The translations under genes were made by a program, and so were the position numbers. Of a DNA stretch of 64,000 nucleotides, positions 4,584-58,479 are shown piece after piece. The notes below the pieces were generated by a model. The model had not been told where the DNA came from, ran no database searches, and saw only the letters and a list, made by a program, of their open reading frames with translations. Location: the IMG/VR virus record IMGVR_UViG_3300045988_087270, positions 1 through 64,000 of that record. One strand, written 5' to 3'. The stretch comes from a virus. Positions within the stretch are counted from its first letter, which is position 1. Every line of letters starts with the position of its first letter.

Positions 4584-4920
4584 CATTGTAGATCCAATAA
4601 TATTTCAATATTGCTCTTTTAGAGTATTGATATATACTATGTGGGGAAAAGAAGCTGAAGATAAAGTATTTGAAGAATATAAAAAGTTAAGAGCTATAAA
4701 ATAAATATGGAAGAACATATTGATAACTCTATTAAAATAATTGATGATATGTTACACAACATAGACATTCTTATAAATTTATTAAAGTAATTATTAAACA
4801 TTTATTAAAATAAGTAAACAAATTTGGTTGCAAGACGGCAACACTTTTAGTCAAGGTAGTTCTACAACAGTATCTCATCCTGAAGGATTACCGAAAGGTA
4901 TTTATGAAGTAAAACTCTCA

Positions 4921-5076
4921 ATGGCTGGATTTTATTTAAGTAAAATCGCTGAGTCTTTTACGTTTGATTACAAACTGTATGGTCTAAATCAAAAATTTAT
5001 TGATTATGTCTTAAAGACATATGAGAACACTACAGGAAATTTAGGTATTTTGCTTGATGGAATCAAAGGATCTGGT
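4921..5076 (+). CDS. AAA+ ATPase, exon 1 (ends in Walker A ...DGIKGSG)
   Basis: ORF ends ...LDGIKGSGK then stop. Joining GGT(5076) to AAA(6388) gives GIKGSGKTVTAKKL, a complete P-loop. Start uncertain: ATG 4921 or TTG 4828. Confidence 0.6.
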
Positions 5077-5184
5077 AAAATTTAAGCAATTTCAGTAAGC
5101 TTAAATTTTTAAAAATTTTATATTTATTTGGATTTAATAAAATTTCATATATATTATAGTAATATTAATTTTAACTATATAAAT

Positions 5185-6237
5185 ATGAAATTTGTAATTA
5201 ATGAAGAATTAGGAGAAAAAATTAAGACTTTGTACTTAATAGATGGATTAAGCTGTACTAAGATTGGTAAAGAAGTAGGATTATCTACTTCTACTATAAG
5301 TTCATTTCTAAAAAGAAATGGGATTGAAGTAGTTAATAAACAAAACAAATTATTATTTGATCTAGATAAAGATATTATTCCTAAATATGAGCAAGGAATA
5401 AGTTTATCTAAATTAGCTAAAGAGTATCATACTTCTATCCAAACTTTGTCTAGAAAATTAAAAGCTAGAGGAATTGAAATAATTAATCATCAAAATGAAA
5501 CTAAGTTTAATGAACATATCTTCGATGTTATAGATACAGAGGAGAAGGCTTATTGGCTAGGATTTATATTTGCTGATGGTTATATTTCATCAAGAGATAA
5601 TGGTTTTGAACTATCTTTAAAAGGCTCTGATATTGAACACTTACATAAATTTAATAAGTTTATGGAGCATAATAAAGATAATGTCAAATTAGGGGAAGTT
5701 AAGTATAAAGATAAAACTTTTTTAAGGTGTCGCTGGGGAATAGTTAATAAGCACTTATGGAATACTCTAAATAATTTAGGATGTACTCCAAGAAAAAGTT
5801 TAACTCTTCAATTTCCTAATATTTCTGAAGAATTAGAAATTCCTTTTATTAGAGGGTACTTCGACGGAGATGGCTGTTTAAGTTACTATTAGAAGACAAA
5901 AATTATACCAAAAGCTTCATTTTTAGGAACTAGACAATTTTTAGTAAAGATACAAGCAATATTAAATAATTTTAATATAAAAAGTTCTTTAGTAAAAGAT
6001 CCCAGAATGGAAAGTACATTAATATTAAATATATCTTCAACAAATTCTTTAGATTTTTTAGACTTAGTATATAGTAATAGTTCCATTTATTTAGACAGAA
6101 AATATAAAAGATATAAAATTTTTAAAACTTGCCGTTCTAAACAGGAATGTTTAGAATTATTAGCGGGTGAAAACGGGGAAGGCTGTGATGCTAATCCCGT
6201 GGTAAATGAAGATAGTAACGAATCTTCATCACTGTAA
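5185..6237 (+). CDS. LAGLIDADG homing endonuclease (intron-encoded) with in-frame TAG at 5890-5892
   Basis: YWLGFIFADGYISS and RGYFDGDGCLSYY motifs. The product aligns full-length to the HE at 33854-34906 across the TAG; the track splits it into 5128-5892 and 6007-6237 in the same frame. Confidence 0.65.
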
Positions 6238-6344
6238 CGCGTAGAAGTTGAAACTCTTATAAGAGAATATAATACTTCCAAGAGCGCCCGCTCTCCCAAT
6301 CATTTGAATGGAGAAAAAGGTACGCTGAGCTATAACAAATAAGA

Positions 6345-6387
6345 AGTTATAGAAATATAGATAAAAAGCTATATGATAACAATACTG
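6345..6387 (+). repeat. conserved intron 3' terminal element, copy 1 of 3
   Basis: tatagaaatatagataaaaagctatatgataacaatactg; copies at 35016-35058 and 22660-22702 with covarying stem positions. Confidence 0.7.
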
Positions 6388-7275
6388 AAAACAGTCACCG
6401 CAAAGAAACTTTGTAATCATTTACAGCTTCCTGTAATCTTAGTACAATCAATGGGCAATGATACTAATGATAAATTAATAAAATATTTATCTACAGCCAT
6501 TGATTTTGACTGTATCTTCTTCTTTGATGAATATGAGAAAGAATTTAAAGATTCTTCTGATGTTCTTTCTTTTATGGATGGCACTTATAACTCTATTTAC
6601 CGTAAGATATTTTTACTTACTACTAATGAGTTGAATGTAGATTCAAATCTTCTTGGAAGACCTTCTAGAATAAGGTATAAAAAGTCTTTCGGTAATCTTT
6701 CAGAGGAAGTTACTAGAGAATTTCTTAATGACATCTTGGAAGATAAAACTGCTATAGAAAAGGTTATAAAATTAACTCATTCTATGAATATTATTACTAT
6801 AGATTTGATTAAAGCTATAGCAACTGAAATTAATATTCATGGAATAGAGTCTCTTCCTGATATTAAAGAAACCTTTAATATTGAGTTTTCTAGTTTCGCT
6901 TATTTATATAGGGAAATACAACTTAGACATTGTGATTTAAAGTTTACTCCTGAAAATATAGATAATATATTGAAAACTTATAATAAGTATAAGGAACTTA
7001 AAAAGAAAGGTTGGGAGAAGTATTCTGATGAAGAAAAAATGTTCGATGCTAAATGGTCTGCCATATTTAGTGAGGATTATGGTTCTACTATTGAAGATAA
7101 AGAGTTAAAATATCTGAAACCTGGAGACTATTTTGATGATCAGCGTATATTAATGGTAAATGTTAAAGAAAAGTATATAGTAACTATGACTGATTATGGA
7201 TATATTATAATATATTTAATTAATAGTTGCTATTCTGCAAGTAAAGCTACAGGTCTTATAAATTATAAATTATAA
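6388..7275 (+). CDS. AAA+ ATPase, exon 2
   Basis: Begins KTVTAKKL; Walker B FFFDEYE, sensor-1 LLTTN, GRPSRIRY arginine-finger region. Confidence 0.6.
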   Translation, partial: KTVTAKKLCNHLQLPVILVQSMGNDTNDKLIKYLSTAIDFDCIFFFDEYEKEFKDSSDVLSFMDGTYNSIYRKIFLLTTNELNVDSNLLGRPSRIRYKKSFGNLSEEVTREFLNDILEDKTAIEKVIKLTHSMNIITIDLIKAIATEINIHGIESLPDIKETFNIEFSSFAYLYREIQLRHCDLKFTPENIDNILKTYNKYKELKKKGWEKYSDEEKMFDAKWSAIFSEDYGSTIEDKELKYLKPGDYFDDQRILMVNVKEKYIVTMTDYGYIIIYLINSCYSASKATGLINYKL

Positions 7276-7352: not shown

Positions 7353-8906
7353 ATGGAACATTTAGTTCTTATTGGTGTTATTGCAGTTGCTATTATTGTA
7401 CTGCTTGTTATTATTGCTATAATGTATGTTAAGGCTCCTCCTTCGATGGCTTACATTCTTTCAGGTTTTCGTAAGGAGCCACGAGTACTTATCGGGGGTG
7501 GTGGAGTAAAAATTCCTGTACTTGAACGATTGGATAAAGTATATCTTGGTCAAGTAACAGTTGATGTTAAGACTTCACAGCCAGTTCCTACTCATGATTT
7601 CTTAGATGTAATGGTAGATGCTGTATGTAAAGTTAGGGTAAAACCTGATACAGAAGGCACTAGACTTGCAGCTAAGAACTTCTTAAATATGAATTCTGCT
7701 CAGATTGCCGCTCAGGTGAAAGACTCTTTGGAGGGTAATATGCGTGAAGTAGTAGGTTCTCTCGACTTAATTAAGATTAACACTGATAGAGATGCATTCT
7801 CTGATGAAATTCAGAAGAAGGCAGCTCCTGATATGGCTAAGTTAGGTCTTGAAATTTTGTCTTGCAATATTCAGAATATTACTGATGAGAAGGGTTTGAT
7901 ACGTGACTTGGGTGCTGATAATACAGCAGCTATTCAGAAAAATGCTAAGATTACTCGTGCTAATGCTGACAGAGATGTAGCTAAGGCTCAGGCTGAGGCT
8001 GATAATGAGGCTAATGAAGCACGAGTAAAAGCTGATACCATTATTGCTGAACGTAATAATGAATTAGCTATTAAGAAAGCTGAACTGAAGAGATTGTCTG
8101 ATATTAAGAAGGCTGAATCTGATGCTGCATATAAGATTCAGCAGCAGGAGCAGCAGAAGACTATTAATATCAAGACTGTAGATGCTGATATTGAAAAGAC
8201 TCGTAAGGAGCAGATCTTGTCTGAGGAGAAGATTAAGATTAAGCAGAATGAGTATCTTGCAGATGTAAATGCTAAGGCTGATGCTGATAAGTATCAGACA
8301 GAGATTGATGCTCAAGCTGCTTTGGAGAAGCAGAAGCGTGAAGCTGAAGCTGAGGCTTATAAGGCAGAGCAGATTGCTAAAGCTGTAAAGGCTAAGGCTG
8401 AAGCTAGTCGTTATTCTCAGGAGCAAGAAGCAGCAGGTATTCGTGCTAAGGGTGAAGCTGAAGCATACGCTACTCAGCAGACTTTAACTGCTGAAGCTGA
8501 AGGTACTAAGGCTAAACTTTTGGCAGAAGCTGAAGGTGTAAAGGCTAAGGGTCTTGCAGAAGCTGAGGCTATGCAGAAGAAGGCTGAAGCATACAGTAAG
8601 TATGGTTCTATTGCTGTAATTGACATGCTTTCTAAACTTAATGAGAAAGTTCTTCCTGATATGGCTAAGTATATTGCTGAGCCTATGAGTAAGATTGGTA
8701 ATATGACAGTTTATGGAACTAATGGTTCTGAAGCTTCTGGCATTTCTGGTAATGTACCTGCTATTATTAAGCAGACTCGTGACATTGTAAAAGATGCCAC
8801 GGGTGTAGATATGGCAGACATTATGAAGGCTAACACTATTGATGCTAAGGTTAACAAGAATGTTAACGTTAATGGTGACGTAGAGAACACCAATGTAAAT
8901 GTATAA
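7353..8906 (+). CDS. SPFH/band-7 (flotillin-like) membrane protein
   Basis: N-terminal TM helix, SPFH core (GGGVKIPVLERLDKV...VDVKT..), then a long Ala/Glu/Lys-rich coiled-coil region typical of flotillin/YqiK. Confidence 0.75.
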   Translation: MEHLVLIGVIAVAIIVLLVIIAIMYVKAPPSMAYILSGFRKEPRVLIGGGGVKIPVLERLDKVYLGQVTVDVKTSQPVPTHDFLDVMVDAVCKVRVKPDTEGTRLAAKNFLNMNSAQIAAQVKDSLEGNMREVVGSLDLIKINTDRDAFSDEIQKKAAPDMAKLGLEILSCNIQNITDEKGLIRDLGADNTAAIQKNAKITRANADRDVAKAQAEADNEANEARVKADTIIAERNNELAIKKAELKRLSDIKKAESDAAYKIQQQEQQKTINIKTVDADIEKTRKEQILSEEKIKIKQNEYLADVNAKADADKYQTEIDAQAALEKQKREAEAEAYKAEQIAKAVKAKAEASRYSQEQEAAGIRAKGEAEAYATQQTLTAEAEGTKAKLLAEAEGVKAKGLAEAEAMQKKAEAYSKYGSIAVIDMLSKLNEKVLPDMAKYIAEPMSKIGNMTVYGTNGSEASGISGNVPAIIKQTRDIVKDATGVDMADIMKANTIDAKVNKNVNVNGDVENTNVNV

Positions 8907-12213: not shown

Positions 12214-12294
12214 GTCTAGATAGCCAAGTGGTCAACGGCAGCAAGCTGTTAACTTGCCCCGAAAGGTTCCTAGGTTCGAATCCTAGTCTAGGCG
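12214..12294 (+). tRNA. type-II tRNA (Ser-like body, G73) with anticodon loop cuGUUaa
   Basis: Acceptor gtctaga/tctaggc, T-arm ctagg-ttcgaat-cctag, 3-bp D-stem with 11-nt D-loop, 12-nt variable arm, anticodon stem gcaag/cttgc; positions 34-36 read GUU. Confidence 0.55.
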
Positions 12295-12302
12295 CAATGA
12301 TA

Positions 12303-12365
12303 TATGCCTCTTATTTCTAAGGTTCATTACCTTCTCGAAAAGAAATGTGTACACAAGAGGCGCCT
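12303..12365 (+). other. structured RNA-like element (7-bp closing stem gcctctt/aagaggc, internal hairpins)
   Basis: Nested stems atttct/agaaat, aagg-ttcatta-cctt (T-arm-like) and palindrome gtgtacac, immediately 5' of the next tRNA. Confidence 0.3.
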
Positions 12366-12442
12366 GGAGTATTAAGCCCTGTTGGTAAGGGAACTAGACT
12401 GTCACTCTAGTAAAACTAAGGGTTCGAGTCCCTTATATTCCG
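12366..12442 (+). tRNA. tRNA-Asp(GUC), non-canonical D-arm
   Basis: Acceptor ggagtat/atattcc (one G-U), anticodon stem ctaga/tctag with loop cuGUCac, T-arm aaggg-ttcgagt-ccctt; the D-stem pairs only ccc/ggg. Confidence 0.5.
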
Positions 12443-12587
12443 CAAATAATGGAGAGCACCTAGCGTTTAACTGGGTAGTTGTTAGAGGTAGCGGTGGCAA
12501 TCCACGAGTATGCCTGATAGCTCAATATATTATTAGAATATGGTCACGATAGTTTGCCCGTCTAATGCCATATTTGCCTTTATTTAA

Positions 12588-12659
12588 GCTTCAATAGCAC
12601 AGTGGTAGTGCAGCATTCTTGTAAAATGCAGGTCGTAGGTTCAAATCCTACTTGAAGCT
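12588..12659 (+). tRNA. tRNA-Thr(UGU)
   Basis: Canonical cloverleaf: acceptor gcttcaa/ttgaagc, D-stem gcac/gtgc, anticodon stem gcatt/aatgc with loop cuUGUaa, T-arm gtagg-ttcaaat-cctac. Confidence 0.8.
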
Positions 12660-12668
12660 CTCTAATAT

Positions 12669-12740
12669 CGTGGGTTGTAGCAGTGGTAGCTTGTTTGTCT
12701 CATAAGCAAACGGTCATCGGTTCGAGTCCGATACCCACAA
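12669..12740 (+). tRNA. tRNA-Met or Ile2 (CAU)
   Basis: Acceptor cgtgggt/acccaca (1:72 C-A mismatch), anticodon loop cuCAUaa, T-arm atcgg-ttcgagt-ccgat. Confidence 0.65.
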
Positions 12741-12746
12741 CAAAAT

Positions 12747-12830
12747 TGTCTAGTATGTGAAGTGGTCAAACATGACTGACTGTAAATCAGCTGCTATTTA
12801 GCTTCGGGAGTTCGAATCTCTCCTAGACAA
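12747..12830 (+). tRNA. tRNA-Tyr(GUA), type II
   Basis: Acceptor tgtctag/ctagaca, anticodon loop cuGUAaa, long variable arm gctatttagc, T-arm gggag-ttcgaat-ctctc. Confidence 0.7.
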
Positions 12831-12850
12831 CTAATTAAAAAATAAATAAT

Positions 12851-13327
12851 ATGGAAAAAACTTTTAATTATCAATCTGATGCAAATTTCTATGATAAAAA
12901 GGATTTTATTATAGCTGTTTTAAAAAGAAAAATAAATAGTTTTAAAGAGTATGATGCTAAAAGAAAAAAGCATTATGCTGGACTAGAACAAAAAATTGGA
13001 GAATTAGAATCCTATATAGATGAATTAGAGAACGGACTTAGTATAGAATCTTTAAGTAATAAAATTCAATCTTTAGAAAATGAGATTGAGAAACAGAATC
13101 TTAAAATTAGAGAGTTAAGAGCTAAAGTTAATATATCTTTATTTGATGATACTAAGTCTTTTAGAGAATTAGAATCTATGGCAAATAATTTAAAAGACTT
13201 TAATAGCATGAAATTAGCTATTAAAGATCTTAGAAAACGGCTTAAAGATAACAAAAAAACTATATCTGATTTAATATATGAATTAACACAAGCTAAACTT
13301 AAAATAAAACAATTAACTGGAGAGTAA
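12851..13327 (+). CDS. coiled-coil hypothetical protein
   Basis: 158 aa; heptad-rich LENE/IEKQNLKIRELRAK. Confidence 0.5.
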   Translation: MEKTFNYQSDANFYDKKDFIIAVLKRKINSFKEYDAKRKKHYAGLEQKIGELESYIDELENGLSIESLSNKIQSLENEIEKQNLKIRELRAKVNISLFDDTKSFRELESMANNLKDFNSMKLAIKDLRKRLKDNKKTISDLIYELTQAKLKIKQLTGE

Positions 13328-13337
13328 TCTCCAATTT

Positions 13338-13411
13338 GGGGCGTCGGCTCAAGTGGTCAGCACCTGCTTTGCACGCAGGCATTCTTAGGAGTTCGAATCT
13401 CCTACGCTCCA
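13338..13411 (+). tRNA. tRNA-Ala(UGC)
   Basis: Acceptor ggggcgt/acgctcc with the G3:U70 identity pair, anticodon stem cctgc/gcagg with loop uuUGCac, T-arm aggag-ttcgaat-ctcct. Confidence 0.8.
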
Positions 13412-13431
13412 CTATTAAATTAAATATTTTT

Positions 13432-22380: not shown

Positions 22381-22702
22381 ACTGTAAAAGCGGGTCATAT
22401 ACCCGTTAATTACGATGCCGTTCCGATAGAGGAATCTTCGGAATTATTATCGAGCAAAATCGGTGGAAGCCCTATAGAGGGTAATACCGAGGTAATAGAA
22501 GAAATTAAAGAATCTTCTACACCGTACAGCATAGAGAATGAACCTAATGAATAGTCTAGTTATTAACTAGACTATTTTTATTAGAATATAATTTCTCCAC
22601 GAGTGTTCGATGCCCCAACTGAAATAAGTGGGTAAAAATTTATGCGGGGCTTATTAGTAATAGTAAGAAGTATAGATAAAAAGCTATACGATAACAAGAC
22701 CG
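22381..22702 (+). mobile_element. ORF-less self-splicing intron (probable group I) at GGT^AAA of the helicase P-loop
   Basis: 322 nt; exon ends in U and intron ends in G; 3' ~45 nt homologous to the other two introns of this family; internal palindromic hairpin tagtctagtt/aactagacta. Confidence 0.6.
22660..22702 (+). repeat. conserved intron 3' terminal element, copy 3 of 3
   Basis: agtatagataaaaagctatacgataacaagaccg; stem gtatag/ctatac covaries with the other copies. Confidence 0.7.
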
Positions 22703-23938: not shown

Positions 23939-24550
23939 ATGTTTGATTTAAACATTGATGAAGAAATAACAATTTTAGAAAAATATAATATTACTCCTAC
24001 TGAATTATTTGTTGTTAAAGCTATAAATGCTTATATAGAAGATTATTCAGAAGATTATCTTCGTAGATATTTAGCTATTGATAAAAAATATGTAGGAAGT
24101 CTTATAGATGTACTTAAATCTTTACAAGATAAGGGTCTTATCCTTAAAAGCTATAAAATTATTCCAGGAATGAAACTAGTTCCTGAAGAGATACCATTTA
24201 ATAAGAACTTTCTAAAATGTTTAGCTAAGAGTTCCTTTGAAATGGGAAAAGAACTTAGAGAACATTATCCTAGATTTAGAAACATTAATGGATGCTTAAC
24301 TAGTATGCTAGGTGTTTCTAAAAAGTTTAATAGTCTTGAAGATGCTTATAGAACTTATGGAAAGAAAATCCATTGGAATGAAGAACTTCATAAAAAGATT
24401 ATTGATTTACTAGATTGGGAAGCTAATACTGATAATGGTATTATTAATTACAGCTTAGCTACATTTATTGTAGATGAAAAATGGGAAGATCTTGAAGCTT
24501 TAAAGAATGGAGACACTGGAATGGATTGTAATACTGTTACAACTTTGTGA
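23939..24550 (+). CDS. hypothetical protein
   Basis: 203 aa. Confidence 0.5.
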   Translation: MFDLNIDEEITILEKYNITPTELFVVKAINAYIEDYSEDYLRRYLAIDKKYVGSLIDVLKSLQDKGLILKSYKIIPGMKLVPEEIPFNKNFLKCLAKSSFEMGKELREHYPRFRNINGCLTSMLGVSKKFNSLEDAYRTYGKKIHWNEELHKKIIDLLDWEANTDNGIINYSLATFIVDEKWEDLEALKNGDTGMDCNTVTTL

Positions 24551-33786: not shown

Positions 33787-33853
33787 AGAGTTTTGTAATA
33801 AATTTTAACATATTTTAATTATTATATTTCCGTGGAAGAGTTATAATACTCTC

Positions 33854-34906
33854 ATGGAAATATTAAATAATTTTTTAAATTCAGAATTAAAGCTAACTGC
33901 TTTTTGTAAAGCTAATAAAGTTAGCCGAGATTATTTAGAGCAATTATTAAAAGATAATAGCTATTCTTATAGTGTATATTTAACGGGTATAACTATTAAG
34001 AATTTAAATTTAGCTATAAAAGATTATATTAATTCTGATGCAGGATTACGTGCTTCCGCTATAAAATATAATATTGGAACACAAACTTTAAAAGCTCATT
34101 TAGTAACTTTAAATCTTTATAATCCTAATAAAAAGGGTAAAAAAGAAAAATCTTACAATGAACATTTTTTTGACAGTATAGACACTGAAGAAAAAGCTTA
34201 TTGGTTAGGATTTATATTTGCTGATGGTTATATTTATAGTTCCCCTCTAGATACATCCAAAGAAAGGATAGATTGGAACTTTGAACTATGTGCTAAAGGG
34301 GATGACAAAGAACATATGGAAAAATTTGCAAAAGCTATTGGATACAATAAAGAATTACATGTTACTAAAGCTGATAAATATGGACATACTAGATGTAGAG
34401 TATGTTTATCCAGTGAAATTTTATGGAAACAACTAAATTCTTTAGGATGTACTCCTAGAAAGAGTTTAACATTAAAATTTCCTGATGAAAGTATTTTTAA
34501 ATCCAAAGATTTAATTAGACATTTCATTAGAGGTTATTTTGATGGTGATGGATGTATTAGCTATGCTAATAAAGAACATACTATTCCAGTATATCAAATA
34601 CTTGGAACTAAAGAGTTTTTAAAGGTTATTATAAGTTATTTAAATATAGAAGAAACTTTATTTCATAATCATAATAATAAAAAAGAAGTTACTATGTATA
34701 TACAGGCTTCTAATAGAAAGGCTATGTATGTATTACATAAATTATATGATAATTGCTCAATCTATTTAAATAGAAAATATGAAAGATTTATTTATTTTTG
34801 CCGTATATTTGAGAAATCAAATATGTTAAAACAAACCAATATCGGTGAAAGCTGTGATGCTAATACCGAGATAACTACAGAAACTAAAGAGTCTGCAGCA
34901 TCGTAG
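33854..34906 (+). CDS. LAGLIDADG homing endonuclease (intron-encoded, intact)
   Basis: YWLGFIFADGYIYSS and RGYFDGDGCISYA motifs; full-length homolog of the HE at 5185-6237. Confidence 0.7.
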   Translation: MEILNNFLNSELKLTAFCKANKVSRDYLEQLLKDNSYSYSVYLTGITIKNLNLAIKDYINSDAGLRASAIKYNIGTQTLKAHLVTLNLYNPNKKGKKEKSYNEHFFDSIDTEEKAYWLGFIFADGYIYSSPLDTSKERIDWNFELCAKGDDKEHMEKFAKAIGYNKELHVTKADKYGHTRCRVCLSSEILWKQLNSLGCTPRKSLTLKFPDESIFKSKDLIRHFIRGYFDGDGCISYANKEHTIPVYQILGTKEFLKVIISYLNIEETLFHNHNNKKEVTMYIQASNRKAMYVLHKLYDNCSIYLNRKYERFIYFCRIFEKSNMLKQTNIGESCDANTEITTETKESAAS

Positions 34907-35015
34907 AGCGTAGAACTTGAACCTGAGAAATCAGAATAAAATAGTTCCAAGAGTGGTTTGCCCTCAGCACGTAAAGGTGGAGGTGAATATGTACGCCGAG
35001 CTATAGTAAATAAGA

Positions 35016-35058
35016 AACTATAGAAATACAGATAAAAAGCTGTATGATAACAAAACTG
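35016..35058 (+). repeat. conserved intron 3' terminal element, copy 2 of 3
   Basis: ctatagaaatacagataaaaagctgtatgataacaaaactg. Confidence 0.7.
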
Positions 35059-39363: not shown

Positions 39364-40625
39364 AGACGTGTGGGCACTATAAATCTCTTTTAATTGACTC
39401 GAAACTCCTTAAATTAAGGACAACGAGGGGCAAGCAATAATTATTATAATTATGGGCAGCCTGAGAGACTAAATAAAGAGAATTTTAAATAAATTTATTT
39501 AAAGTATATAATAGTCCGAACTCTATGGTAACATAGAGAGAGAAAATCGAAGAATTTTCTCCGTTAATAATATAATATACAAAATAATTTTGATTCCCGA
39601 GGATGAGGGTCTATAATTGTTCTATAACAGTAAATATAAAAATTATAGTTTATGGAACAAAAATTAGACATTTTAAAAGTAAGAAATTTAGTAAAAGAAA
39701 AAAGAGTAAGAAAAAGAATACCAGATGAATGTACCTGTGAAGTATGCGGAAGTACTAAAGGAGAAGGGAAACTTAGAAGATTCAATGATTATATAGTTTG
39801 TGAAAAACACTATGACCAATTAAATAAATATGGTAAAATCACCGATACTTCTAAAAGAAAACACAAAAAGCCTTTAGAAAAATGTAGTATTTGTGGAGGT
39901 TTAAAAATGGCTTCTTTTGAAGGAACCCCATATTGTCGTAAACATTATATCCAAATAACTAGGCATGGGGTTATTAGAGATAGAACTATCTATGATGCTA
40001 ACGAATATGTTATTCATGAAGATTATGTAGAAGTAAAATGTTTTGATAAAAATGGTAATTATAAAGCTAGCACCAAAGTTGACTTAGAATTTTTACCTGA
40101 TATTAAAAAACATAAAATCTATATAAGAAAAAGTGGTATTAAAGAATATGCAGCATTTTCAGGAATAGAAAATGAAGAAGGTTCTGGTAAAAAATACTTT
40201 GTACATAGATATATAATGCATCTTCACGATAAAAAATATAATATTGATGAAGTAGTAGACCATATCAATGGGGATTCTTTAGATAATAGGATTTCAAATC
40301 TTAGAGTTTGTACTCAAAAAGAAAATTCTTATAATAACAGAGGAACAAAATTAAATCAAAAAATTAAAGGAGTAAACTGGCTTAAAGTAAATAAAAAATG
40401 GACGGCTAGAATAATGTACAATTATAAAAGTATACATCTTGGAAATTATTTTACTTATGCTGAAGCTGTATTAGCTAGAATAAAAAAAGAACAAGAATTA
40501 TTTGGTGAATATGGTCCTAACAAAGATTTATATTATATTATTAATCATCCTTCGCCAATAGAGGAATTAAATAAAATATTAGAAATTCCTTCTATAGAAG
40601 GAGCGTAACAGAATGGCAGAAAGCG
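39364..40625 (+). mobile_element. group I intron 1 of nrdD with HNH-AP2 endonuclease ORF
   Basis: P1: exon gtgcct pairs with IGS gggcac at 39373-39378. R-like gagagacta, S-like aagtatataatagtccgaac, P9 hairpin ctatggtaacatagag. Ends ...gtaacagaatG. Splicing gives FNTEQVP|AESASVKLY. Confidence 0.7.
39652..40608 (+). CDS. HNH-AP2 homing endonuclease (intron-encoded)
   Basis: HNH_3 motif VDHINGDSLDNRISNLRVCTQKEN, AP2-like KGVNWLKVNKKWTARI...; paralog of 42035-42805. Confidence 0.65.
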   Translation: MEQKLDILKVRNLVKEKRVRKRIPDECTCEVCGSTKGEGKLRRFNDYIVCEKHYDQLNKYGKITDTSKRKHKKPLEKCSICGGLKMASFEGTPYCRKHYIQITRHGVIRDRTIYDANEYVIHEDYVEVKCFDKNGNYKASTKVDLEFLPDIKKHKIYIRKSGIKEYAAFSGIENEEGSGKKYFVHRYIMHLHDKKYNIDEVVDHINGDSLDNRISNLRVCTQKENSYNNRGTKLNQKIKGVNWLKVNKKWTARIMYNYKSIHLGNYFTYAEAVLARIKKEQELFGEYGPNKDLYYIINHPSPIEELNKILEIPSIEGA

Positions 40626-56711: not shown

Positions 56712-56983
56712 TAATCCTTAAATTATTACAATTTTGTGGCACTCTATGGAAACATAGAGAATAAAAAATTGGGTGAATTGCAGGAACTTAAGGAAAATCT
56801 GCAGCCAAGCCAACCTTTAACAAAGTTGGAAGGTTCAACGACTAACTCTTGAAACTTCGTAAGAAGAATATAATAGAGACACGAGCGCCCAACACCTAAA
56901 CTATAAAGTAAGGTGATGAAATAGTCTAGCCTATATGGTAACATATAGAGCCTTGGATAAAGAGCCAAGGGTTAATACACGCG
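56712..56983 (+). mobile_element. ORF-less group I intron (td/IA2-like) in polA
   Basis: P1: exon gccat pairs with IGS gtggc at 56736-56740. P gaattgcagg, Q aatctgcagccaag, R gttcaacgactaac, S aaatagtctagcc, P9 hairpin ctatatggtaacatatag. Ends in G. Splicing gives AKGIEFAI|NYGGDF. Confidence 0.75.
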
Positions 56984-57452: not shown

Positions 57453-58317
57453 AAATAATCTTGTCGTAGTAAAACGATGTTAATTGCTTGGAACTCCTAA
57501 AGATTTAATTACTAAATTATTGAAATAATAAACCAGTAAAAATATTAAATATGATTTTACCTCAGTTAAAAGAAATGGACAATAAGCAGCTTTATAATTT
57601 TACAAGAGAACAAACTCAAGTATTTCTAACAGGACTGCTAGGTGATGGATGTATATCTACTACAAATAGTGGTAGTTATATTTATACTACAAATTGTAAG
57701 CATCTTGAATATTTAGAATTTAAAAAGAAATTATTAGGTAAAGGAAATATTAGACTCCAAGAAAGAAATGGCTATAGTCAAACTCCTATATATACTATGT
57801 ATGGGGGAGCTTACCCAGAATTATTTGAGTTTAAAGAATTTACTGTTCAAGATGTTATTGAAAACTTAGATTTACTTGGGTTAGCATTATGGTTTTACGA
57901 TGATGGTAGCCTTCATAAAAGAGATTTACATTATAATTTAAATACTCAAAAGTTCCCAAAGTATATACAAGAAGGAATTTTTATTCCATGGTTTGATTCC
58001 TTAGGCATTAAAGCTAATTTAAGACATGATACAAAAAGAGGAAAAGAATTGTATTATTTAGGAATTAATAAATATGAAGGAGCTAATATTATTAGTGAAA
58101 TACTATCACGTTATCCATTAGATTGTTACTCTTATAAATTATGGAGTTCAGAGACTATCCTGAAATGGAGTAAGCTGCAAGAGCAGGTGAAAAGCATCGA
58201 TGAAAATCTTACTAATAGGCAATTAGCTTATAAGTGGAGGTTTTTATAAGATATAGTCCGAACCTATATGAAAGTATAGGAGAATATATGGAATCGATAT
58301 ATTCGTAACAATATATG
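57453..58317 (+). mobile_element. group I intron in polA with LAGLIDADG ORF
   Basis: P1: exon acgat pairs with IGS gtcgt at 57464-57468. 3' S box aagatatagtccgaacc and P9 hairpin cctatatgaaagtatagg (GAAA loop). Ends ...tatatG. Splicing gives ...TPYD|EINCEAP.... Confidence 0.65.
57551..58249 (+). CDS. LAGLIDADG homing endonuclease (intron-encoded)
   Basis: LTGLLGDGCIS and LALWFYDDGSL dodecapeptide motifs. Confidence 0.7.
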   Translation: MILPQLKEMDNKQLYNFTREQTQVFLTGLLGDGCISTTNSGSYIYTTNCKHLEYLEFKKKLLGKGNIRLQERNGYSQTPIYTMYGGAYPELFEFKEFTVQDVIENLDLLGLALWFYDDGSLHKRDLHYNLNTQKFPKYIQEGIFIPWFDSLGIKANLRHDTKRGKELYYLGINKYEGANIISEILSRYPLDCYSYKLWSSETILKWSKLQEQVKSIDENLTNRQLAYKWRFL

Positions 58318-58479
58318 GAGATTAATTGCGAAGCACCTATAGAAATAGCTGAAAAAGTAGCTACTAGACTTCACGCTATCATGGTTAGAGCTGGAGAGAT
58401 ATTCTGTACTAGATGTAAGTTAGATGCAGATATTTCTAGATGTAAAGATGGAACACTACCTAATTACTGGATTCATTAA
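58318..58479 (+). CDS. family A DNA polymerase, exon 3 (C-terminus)
   Basis: EINCEAPIEIAEKVATRLHAIMVRAGE...GTLPNYWIH* aligns to the PolI/T7 C-terminal region ending in the conserved His. Confidence 0.6.
   Translation, partial: EINCEAPIEIAEKVATRLHAIMVRAGEIFCTRCKLDADISRCKDGTLPNYWIH

Follow-up and report, generated by a model that had tools for sequence, protein, structure and literature searches.

A probable mobile group I intron within the Walker A codons of an AAA ATPase gene from a phage

We analyze a 64,000-nt stretch of viral DNA, positions 1 to 64,000 of the IMG/VR virus record IMGVR_UViG_3300045988_087270 (hereafter, the window), in which the gene for an AAA ATPase is broken between the Gly and Lys codons of its Walker A motif. 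The interrupting sequence at 5077-6387 is very probably a mobile group I intron with a layout like that of the T4 td intron, judging from its sequence and from comparison with relatives. An original prediction, made from the letters of the window without database searches, had proposed that an intron splits the motif. Three independent lines of evidence now back it: alleles of the same gene that are contiguous at the junction, a group I fold with covariation, and a split at the same codon in the crAss-like phage cr6_1. The insert also contains an open reading frame (ORF) for a LAGLIDADG homing endonuclease, interrupted by a single in-frame TAG, and is one of at least six group I introns in the window.

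Intronless alleles define the splice junction

The upstream ORF ends in GIKGSGKI, followed by TAA at 5083-5085. The original prediction had placed the stop directly after GIKGSGK; the motif is as described, and one Ile codon precedes the TAA. The downstream ORF (6373-7275) begins MITIL and continues KTVTAKKL, with the K codon at 6388, 15 nt past its ATG as predicted, and the interval between 5076 (T) and 6387 (G) comes to the same 1311 nt. Joining 5076 to 6388, written here as GGT/AAA with the slash marking the junction (..GGATCTGGT/AAAACAGTC.. in the spliced sequence), is in frame and yields GIKGSGKT, then FFFDEYE (Walker B), LLTTN (sensor 1) and GRPSRIRY. This is the join that had been foreseen, and the Pfam AAA model (PF00004, E 1.4e-9) runs across it, covering residues 74-179 of the 378-aa spliced product with the junction at 83/84. 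Only after splicing is the set of AAA ATPase motifs complete, with an unbroken Walker A (GxxGxGK[ST]), a Walker B (hhhhDE) and a sensor 1.

A search with the spliced protein returned 1355 matches, the best 120 of which are uninterrupted proteins of 383-384 aa with 85-97% identity and 100% query coverage. In alignment A1 these homologues read DGIKG[ST]GKTVTAKELCN and are free of gaps across the join. Two intronless contigs (L003 and L004) have the gene order of the window (AAA, Band_7/flotillin, DUF8224), and their DNA runs unbroken across the junction (CTGGTAAAACAG; in longer context, ..GGAACTGGTAAAACAGTTACC..). The sequence GGTAAAACAG is likewise contiguous in intronless alleles of the same gene order, where the site reads GGAATCAAAGGAACTGGTAAAACAGTTACCGC. 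As these alleles are contiguous at the exact junction, the 1311 nt are an insertion that is polymorphic among close relatives. Such presence or absence among alleles 85-97% identical is consistent with homing.

At the DNA level the boundary is ambiguous by up to 4 nt, as the intron and exon 2 both start AAAA; the rule of a U at position -1 and a terminal omega-G is satisfied only by 5076/5077 and 6387/6388. The 5' end of the gene lies further upstream than the ATG at 4921 from which the original prediction began it. Homologues start MGKQIW or MSKQIW 37 codons before that ATG, at the place that corresponds to 4810; the start-codon site at 4810-4812 is ATA in the window versus ATG in L003/L004, and the first usable start is TTG at 4828, 6 codons downstream. 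The spliced ATPase is 97% identical to intact homologues and has no lesion other than this start codon.

Directly downstream of the ATPase, at 7353-8906, the window encodes a 517-aa Band_7/SPFH-flotillin protein, which occupies the same place in the intron-free contigs.

The insert ends in a covarying group I core

We aligned 50 diverse members of the intron family, including three copies from the window and that of cr6_1. RNAalifold predicts 37 pairs on this alignment, 34 of them with compensatory double changes. In a hand-drawn structure that includes the P3/P7 pseudoknot, 90.7% of 2840 cells are paired, versus 32-43% when the partners are slid by 1-3 columns, and the covariation score is 0.693 versus at most 0.15; compensatory changes occur in 51 of the 59 pairs, and none of 500 shuffles reaches any of the observed measures. 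The middle pair of P7, for instance, is G-C in 25 sequences and A-U in 23. The crossing of P3 by P7 creates the pseudoknot that characterizes group I introns, and the omega-G position is kept in all 46 aligned 3' domains (alignment A5). A 96%-identical copy on the IMG/VR contig L085 differs at 52 positions. The 263-nt core has only 4 of these, none of which disturbs the fold: G6177A with C6196T (compensatory, P4), G6286A (P3 U.G to U-A) and T6340C (P9 loop).

Conservation reaches 5' to about 6129, giving a ribozyme core of about 260 nt (Table 1). The original prediction described a 3' domain of about 150 nt shared with two other loci. That domain is indeed conserved; since the segment from the internal guide sequence (IGS) to P6 lies within the end of the ORF, it is the 3' half of the longer core, and a fourth, more distant copy exists. 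The structural conservation on which the prediction hung is borne out by both the RNAalifold and the hand-drawn analyses. By this predicted fold the core is under clear structural selection and the insert is a group I intron.

Table 1. Coordinates of the predicted intron, its structural elements and flanking exons, and of the two close copies in the window
Feature	Position	Strand	Description and basis
AAA ATPase exon 1	4828..5076	+	Ends ..GGA TCT GGT (G-S-G of Walker A); homologue starts, L003/L004 DNA
Group I intron (predicted)	5077..6387	+	1311 nt; 5' splice site after U5076, last base G6387 (omega-G); intronless alleles, structure, covariation
5' intron end	5077..5110	+	AA proposed to pair UU 6129-6130 (P1 extension/P10 alternative), from the sequence and relatives
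Local hairpin AAAUUUAAGC..GCUUAAAUUU	within 5077..5110	+	Proposed base of the expanded P1 loop
LAGLIDADG homing-endonuclease ORF	5185..6237	+	350 codons; PF14528 E 1.7e-10, homology to intact ORFs, dN/dS
In-frame TAG	5890..5892	+	Inside second LAGLIDADG domain; Asn at the aligned position in intact homologues
Internal guide sequence GCCG	6131..6134	+	P1: G6131.U5076 wobble, C6132-G5075, C6133-G5074, G6134.U5073
P2 hairpin UUCUAAACA-GGAA-UGUUUAGAA	6135..6156	+	Helices 1 and 2; 9/9 pairs compensatory
P3 5' strand AGCGGGU	6162..6168	+	Pairs 6286-6292; 6/6 compensatory, 93% paired
P4 (6174-6178/6195-6199) enclosing P5 (6181-6192)	6174..6199	+	Helices 5 and 6; resembles T4 td P4/P5
P6 hairpin AUGAAGAU..AUCUUCAU	6206..6229	+	Helices 7-9; all pairs compensatory, 93-97% paired
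P7 5' strand GCGUA	6239..6243	+	Pairs 6321-6325; helix 10, 97% paired
P7.1 (GAAGU/ACUUC, 6244-6248/6274-6278) enclosing P7.2 (CUCUU-AU-AAGAG, 6254-6265)	6244..6278	+	Helix 11; 4/4 compensatory
P3 3' strand GCCCGCU	6286..6292	+	Covariation
P8 hairpin	6293..6313	+	Helix 12; 5/5 pairs compensatory
P7 3' strand UACGC	6321..6325	+	Covariation
P9 (6330-6352) and P9.1 (6355-6374; invariant loop GAUAAAAAGC)	6330..6374	+	Helices 13 and 14; 97-100% paired
AAA ATPase exon 2	6388..7275	+	Starts AAA ACA (K-T of Walker A), through Walker B, sensor 1 and C-terminal domain
Intron 2, ORF-less, 322 nt	22381-22702		Splits superfamily 2 (SF2) helicase Walker A ASTGFG/KSRIG at GGT/AAA, 22380/22703; 3'-domain model 109 bits
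Intron 3, 1272 nt	33787-35058		Splits phosphoesterase-like gene ..YAHG/KDNN at GGT/AAA, 33786/35059; 3'-domain model 122 bits

The fold also bears on whether the insert is spliced at all. A free-standing endonuclease cassette might have split the ATPase into two translated pieces or inactivated the gene, with no splicing involved; gene callers do see three ORFs here, the downstream one has an ATG of its own at 6373, and Rfam finds no intron. Such a cassette would not, however, end in a group I-fold element of about 260 nt with covariation in every helix, nor have boundaries that obey the U/omega-G rule. Moreover, a split inside the GxxGxGKT motif leaves both halves without a P-loop, both ATPase exons are kept at 97% protein identity, and an endonuclease cassette cannot explain the 322-nt, ORF-less copy in the P-loop of a helicase. 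We reject the cassette on the strength of the covarying core and the boundaries, and regard an unspliced gene as very improbable.

Other kinds of intervening element can be set aside with still greater assurance. Inteins are frequent in the P-loops of replication ATPases, and crAss-like phages carry inteins as well (PMC7886860, PMC4760082). In the window, though, the exon-1 frame reaches a stop after 3 codons of the insert, and the ORF, arranged differently, begins at a start of its own, so that there is no in-frame intein, and the Pfam search shows no Hint or intein domain. The same search of the insert finds no reverse transcriptase, as a group II intron might encode, and no transposase, as an IStron-like chimera might; no Rfam group II intron family matches, and the fold is that of a group I intron. 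We therefore reject the intein and the group II intron, and any element of these three kinds appears extremely unlikely.

The guide sequence and the placement of the ORF

The guide lies directly 5' of P2, where T4 td has GCCU, and GCC stands at the guide position in 31 of 45 aligned members. Three members have the guide GCGA (L030, L046 and L053); their candidate exon ends are UCGU or UUGU, and the resulting joins all give a ..YDHDE.. junction. GCGA guides thus go with UCGU/UUGU exon ends, so guide and exon co-vary. In several members, the first bases of the intron pair with the bases just 5' of the guide: AAAU with AUUU in L119 (a 255-nt intron), AAUA with UAUU in cr6_1, and AA with UU here. 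The same first intron bases resemble those that open exon 2, which would fit P10 taking over from this part of P1 once the first step of splicing is complete. A generic search for 5' splice sites, combining guide complementarity with an open joined frame, is useful only together with a Walker A motif or a GCGA guide, because a guide of 3-4 nt alone yields many false candidates.

With the guide at this position, the LAGLIDADG ORF falls within the P1 loop, bounded by the 5' splice site and, about 1 kb downstream, by the guide. Its last ~35 codons (6131-6237) also encode the IGS, P2, the 5' strand of P3, P4, P5 and P6, and its stop comes just before P7. This overlap accounts for a conserved peptide, ..CRS..LL..GEGCDAN.., common to three endonucleases of the family, and for the retention of the same sequence in the ORF-less intron 2.

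The endonuclease and its in-frame TAG

That the intron carries a LAGLIDADG ORF was part of the original prediction, which made no mention of the TAG. The encoded protein has two N-terminal helix-turn-helix (HTH) domains (HTH_23 and HTH_38) and two LAGLIDADG motifs (LGFIFADG and IRGYFDGDG); it matches PF14528 (LAGLIDADG_3) at E 1.7e-10 and PF14527 weakly, and shows 41-45% identity to the intact ORFs that occupy the corresponding place in intron 3 and in the cr6_1 intron. Under the standard code the frame is interrupted by the TAG, and it is open if the TAG is decoded. The TAG is common to the window, the relative MT835492.1 and L085, and no frameshift or further stop occurs in the 350 codons, in genomes that are 4-8% apart. 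Between the window and L085, the ratio of non-synonymous to synonymous substitution rates (dN/dS) is 0.08 upstream of the TAG (19.5 synonymous and 6.5 non-synonymous changes) and 0.35 between the TAG and the RNA overlap (8 and 11), the latter resting on 19 substitutions.

The window spans only a plus-strand early region. Here ORF totals barely change under TAG or TGA recoding, and TAG terminates 11 ORFs of 100 codons or more, so the standard code applies. In contrast, the minus-strand late genes of MT835492.1 (L127-L129, about 61-121 kb) form a block that is readable only with TAG as a sense codon: counting ORFs of 150 aa or longer, it encodes 19,296 aa if TAG is sense and 2,209 aa if the standard code is applied. 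In-frame TAGs number 16-128 in most of its large late proteins, and the giants reach 3401 aa. Code switching has been described for crAss-like phages (PMC7886860), and the late TAG recoding of MT835492.1 matches that description.

Taken together, the single TAG, the dN/dS values and the late recoding in a relative suggest that the endonuclease is probably still made, not dead. We lean towards a functional enzyme whose TAG is decoded late in infection, with moderate confidence; a recently inactivated gene is possible.

The window also contains six tRNA genes at 12214-13412 (Asn, Asp, Thr, Met, Tyr and Ala), of which MT835492.1 is without the Thr gene.

Comparison with known introns

One of the closest known parallels is cr6_1 (NC_055894, Suoliviridae, crAss-like), found by blastn, which has an intron of the same ribozyme family, with the IGS UGCCG, P2-P9.1 and the tail GAUAAAAAGC..GAUAACAA. 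Its gene layout is a 96-aa ORF ending ..GTKGTG, an annotated intron-encoded endonuclease and an annotated ATPase starting KTVMAK. The split, at GGT/AAG, is at the same codon boundary, in a homologous ATPase (31% identity, E 1e-17), and the LAGLIDADG ORF occupies the same place with 45% identity to that of the window, which differs in its in-frame TAG and two extra N-terminal HTH domains. The host lineages also differ, contigs of the window lineage reaching about 180 kb.

Yutin 2021 lists ATP_43b among the intron-bearing genes of Delta-group crAss-like phages (PMC7886860); in the parts of that paper drawn on here, introns are identified from endonuclease domains only, with no RNA structure or exact junction given. 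The ATPase of the window probably corresponds to ATP_43b. The same source gives genome sizes of 145-192 kb and up to 14 introns for the Zeta group, and contigs with near-identical ATPases to ours reach 172-182 kb; from genome size, intron density and TAG recoding, placement in the Zeta group would be our guess. A tblastn search of annotated phages (INPHARED) with the capsid-like protein of MT835492.1 found only two unannotated records.

The T4 td intron (group IA2, encoding I-TevI), with a layout that we read by eye, has its elements in the same order: IGS before P2, P3, P4-P6, P7, P7.1/P7.2, P3', P8, P7' and P9. The extra helices of group IA2 between P7 and P3', P7.1 and P7.2, are present in the window intron, although only about half of the family has P7.2. 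The guide and the exon end are almost the same in both (GCCU/GGGU in td and GCCG/UGGU here), and P4/P5 is recognizably similar (AAACGGGGAA..AAUCCCGUGCUAAAU in td versus AAACGGGGAA..AAUCCCGUGGUAAAU). As with td, an intron that carries an endonuclease ORF breaks a phage protein-coding gene at a conserved site. The ORFs differ in type and place: the GIY-YIG ORF of td lies after P6, between the core halves P3-P6 and P7-P9, whereas the LAGLIDADG ORF of the window lies in the P1 loop and extends into IGS-P6. Local similarity to td is seen in IGS-P2-P3-P4-P5, and the two are not close in sequence. According to a review, phage group I introns mostly encode GIY-YIG, HNH, PD-(D/E)xK or EDxHD enzymes (PMC3984707), which makes a LAGLIDADG ORF a less usual choice for a phage intron, the enzyme family itself not being new.

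Proposed mechanism and the case for decay

In the account that we favor, the ATPase gene would be transcribed through the intron, and the exon end ..UGGU would pair with the guide GCCG some 1 kb downstream. The P3-P9 core, with its P3/P7 pseudoknot, would bind guanosine, and two transesterifications would free the intron after G6387 and ligate GGU to AAA, so that GIKGSGKT and a full-length ATPase result. The LAGLIDADG protein from the P1 loop would cut intronless alleles across GGT-AAA, and repair would copy the intron in; such a homing cycle would explain why the gene occurs among closely related phages in intron-bearing and intron-free form. The TAG in the endonuclease would most likely be sense-decoded under late-gene recoding and is probably not disabling. 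This is the standard and well-supported mechanism of a mobile group I intron, an ordinary kind of phage mobile element.

Several points weigh against this account. We infer splicing itself from the sequence, along with the activity and target of the endonuclease and the read-through of its TAG. The exon part of P1 has only 4 bp, two G-C and two G.U. The Rfam model RF00028 (Intron_gpI) gives no group I match in the whole window at its gathering score or in the intron regions at E<=10; this negative says little, since the same search misses a T4 td control, and the model is insensitive to this intron class or to ORF-bearing introns. A covariance model of the conserved 3' domain (R1) does not match T4 td at E<=1, so the td-like (IA2) assignment is one of architecture and local similarity only. 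The small number of substitutions behind the downstream dN/dS, the ORFs that end in TAG, and the start codon, tRNA and deletion described next belong to the same side of the balance.

Some of these observations would fit a real intron in a decaying copy, its endonuclease a pseudogene by virtue of the TAG and its ATPase allele on the way out, as a relic of late-phase homing. The TAG falls inside the second LAGLIDADG domain, and the ancestral ATG of the ATPase is ATA here, a possible sign of decay. TAG terminates 11 early-region ORFs, neither the 6 tRNAs of the window nor the 5 in 121 kb of MT835492.1 include a suppressor, and intron 2 of the family has lost its ORF. In MT835492.1 (L001 2836-2837, about 5871), a 134-nt deletion extends from within P7.1/P7.2 to 20 nt into exon 2. 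With the 3' splice site and KTVTAKK gone, this allele could not be spliced, and the Lys-Thr of the P-loop is no longer encoded; as the record carries an UNVERIFIED tag, the deletion may be an assembly error. Intron-free, intron-bearing and deletion-damaged alleles coexist at 92-97% identity. On the other side, the TAG is the sole defect in 350 codons across three genomes, both dN/dS values lie below the value of about 1 expected for a dead gene, and the lineage recodes TAG in late genes. The ribozyme core is under clear structural selection, the spliced ATPase has no other lesion, and the TTG lies only 6 codons beyond the lost ATG. We consider decay a plausible but unlikely explanation.

Other introns in the window and spread of the family

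R1 scores 134 bits at 6234-6387, 122 bits at 34903-35058 and 109 bits at 22524-22702, with a fourth, more distant match of 74 bits at 56835-56983. The two further family copies in the original prediction hold up at 122 and 109 bits, and the total is larger than the three that it implied: the window has at least six group I introns, splitting genes for the ATPase, a helicase, a phosphoesterase, NrdD and PolA (twice).

The ORF-less intron 2 has a minimum free energy z-score of -8.2, and the exon-1 frame of its helicase runs 58 codons into it, through remnants of an endonuclease C-terminus. Intron 3 carries an intact 350-aa LAGLIDADG ORF (33854-34906). A hairpin in intron 3, UUUCCGUG..CAUGGAAA, covers the start codon of this endonuclease and may control its translation.

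The gene for a family A DNA polymerase appears to hold two group I introns, at 56719-56981 and about 57459-58318. Across the first, the Pfam match covers model positions 30-217 and then 219-333, and the 74-bit R1 match falls on its 3' domain; the second has a LAGLIDADG_2 ORF (57551-58249) and a td-like P7 (AGACUAU/AUAGUC). The NrdD ORF is truncated at Pfam model position 414/562, and the intron region, from 39394 to beyond 40608, has a group I-like core (GAGACUAAAU..AUAGUCC) followed by an HNH endonuclease ORF (39652-40608), a parallel to the T4 nrdD (sunY) intron.

MT835492.1 has a further strong family member (L127 26413-26599, 107 bits); in the window, R1 matches only weakly (E 0.25) at the syntenic place, 24303-24404. 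This difference suggests that intron content varies between the window and MT835492.1.

Beyond the window, a pattern for the conserved tail, GATAAAAAGCNNNNNGATAACAA, matches at least 120 viral contigs. In a blastn search with an ORF-less member, the 3' core recurs at 68-81% identity in Staphylococcus, Streptococcus, Clostridioides and Bacillus phages, so the ribozyme family is present in phages of both Bacteroidota and Firmicutes. The Firmicute introns differ from those here in host gene and endonuclease, and most matches are unannotated or annotated as hypothetical protein or homing endonuclease.

The close copies in the window, three in number, are all inserted at GGT/AAA: GSG/KT in the ATPase, GFG/KS in the helicase and AHG/KD in the phosphoesterase-like gene. 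Among the 102 non-redundant 3' exons of the viral contigs listed, 23 begin K[ST] and 34 begin K. In the aligned members, exon 2 starts AA in 18 of the 31 with a GCC guide versus 2 of the 14 with other guides. This pattern is expected from elements homing to conserved motifs; it is also compatible with reverse splicing into GGU/AA, a process that needs 4-6 nt and is discussed in PMC3984707. One could combine the latter with the recoding. One ribozyme lineage, with a fixed GCC guide and an AA-matching P1-extension/P10 segment, would then have repeatedly colonized GGU/AA, the commonest sites being the Walker A G-K junctions of unrelated P-loop nucleoside triphosphatases (AAA ATPase, SF2 helicase and others). 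Reverse splicing would take it into any GGU/AA, and endonucleases would be acquired or adapted afterwards. The endonuclease of the window copy would be gated by late TAG recoding, which would confine homing to late infection. We regard this combination, in which the RNA chooses the site, as doubtful and offer it as speculation.

Conclusions

The phage group was already reported as intron-rich. The most useful by-products of this work are the exact junctions, the covariation-supported family alignment and the observation of a TAG in the endonuclease. Gene callers give an essential-looking ATPase as two fragments plus an endonuclease, and the exact junction restores the 378-aa protein; at least five more gene splits are flagged in the window, in the helicase, the phosphoesterase, NrdD and PolA (twice). 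The well-aligned family, which occurs in at least 120 viral contigs and escaped the Rfam model for group I introns, could be the starting point for a covariance model better suited to annotating phages. The ~35 codons that double as IGS-P6, together with the TAG codon, bear on how expression of the endonuclease may be coupled to splicing and to the code switch. For the biology of these phages, the ATPase intron, with its ORF-less copy in a second gene, offers a clean example of what is very probably a homing cycle in an abundant, uncultured gut-phage lineage.

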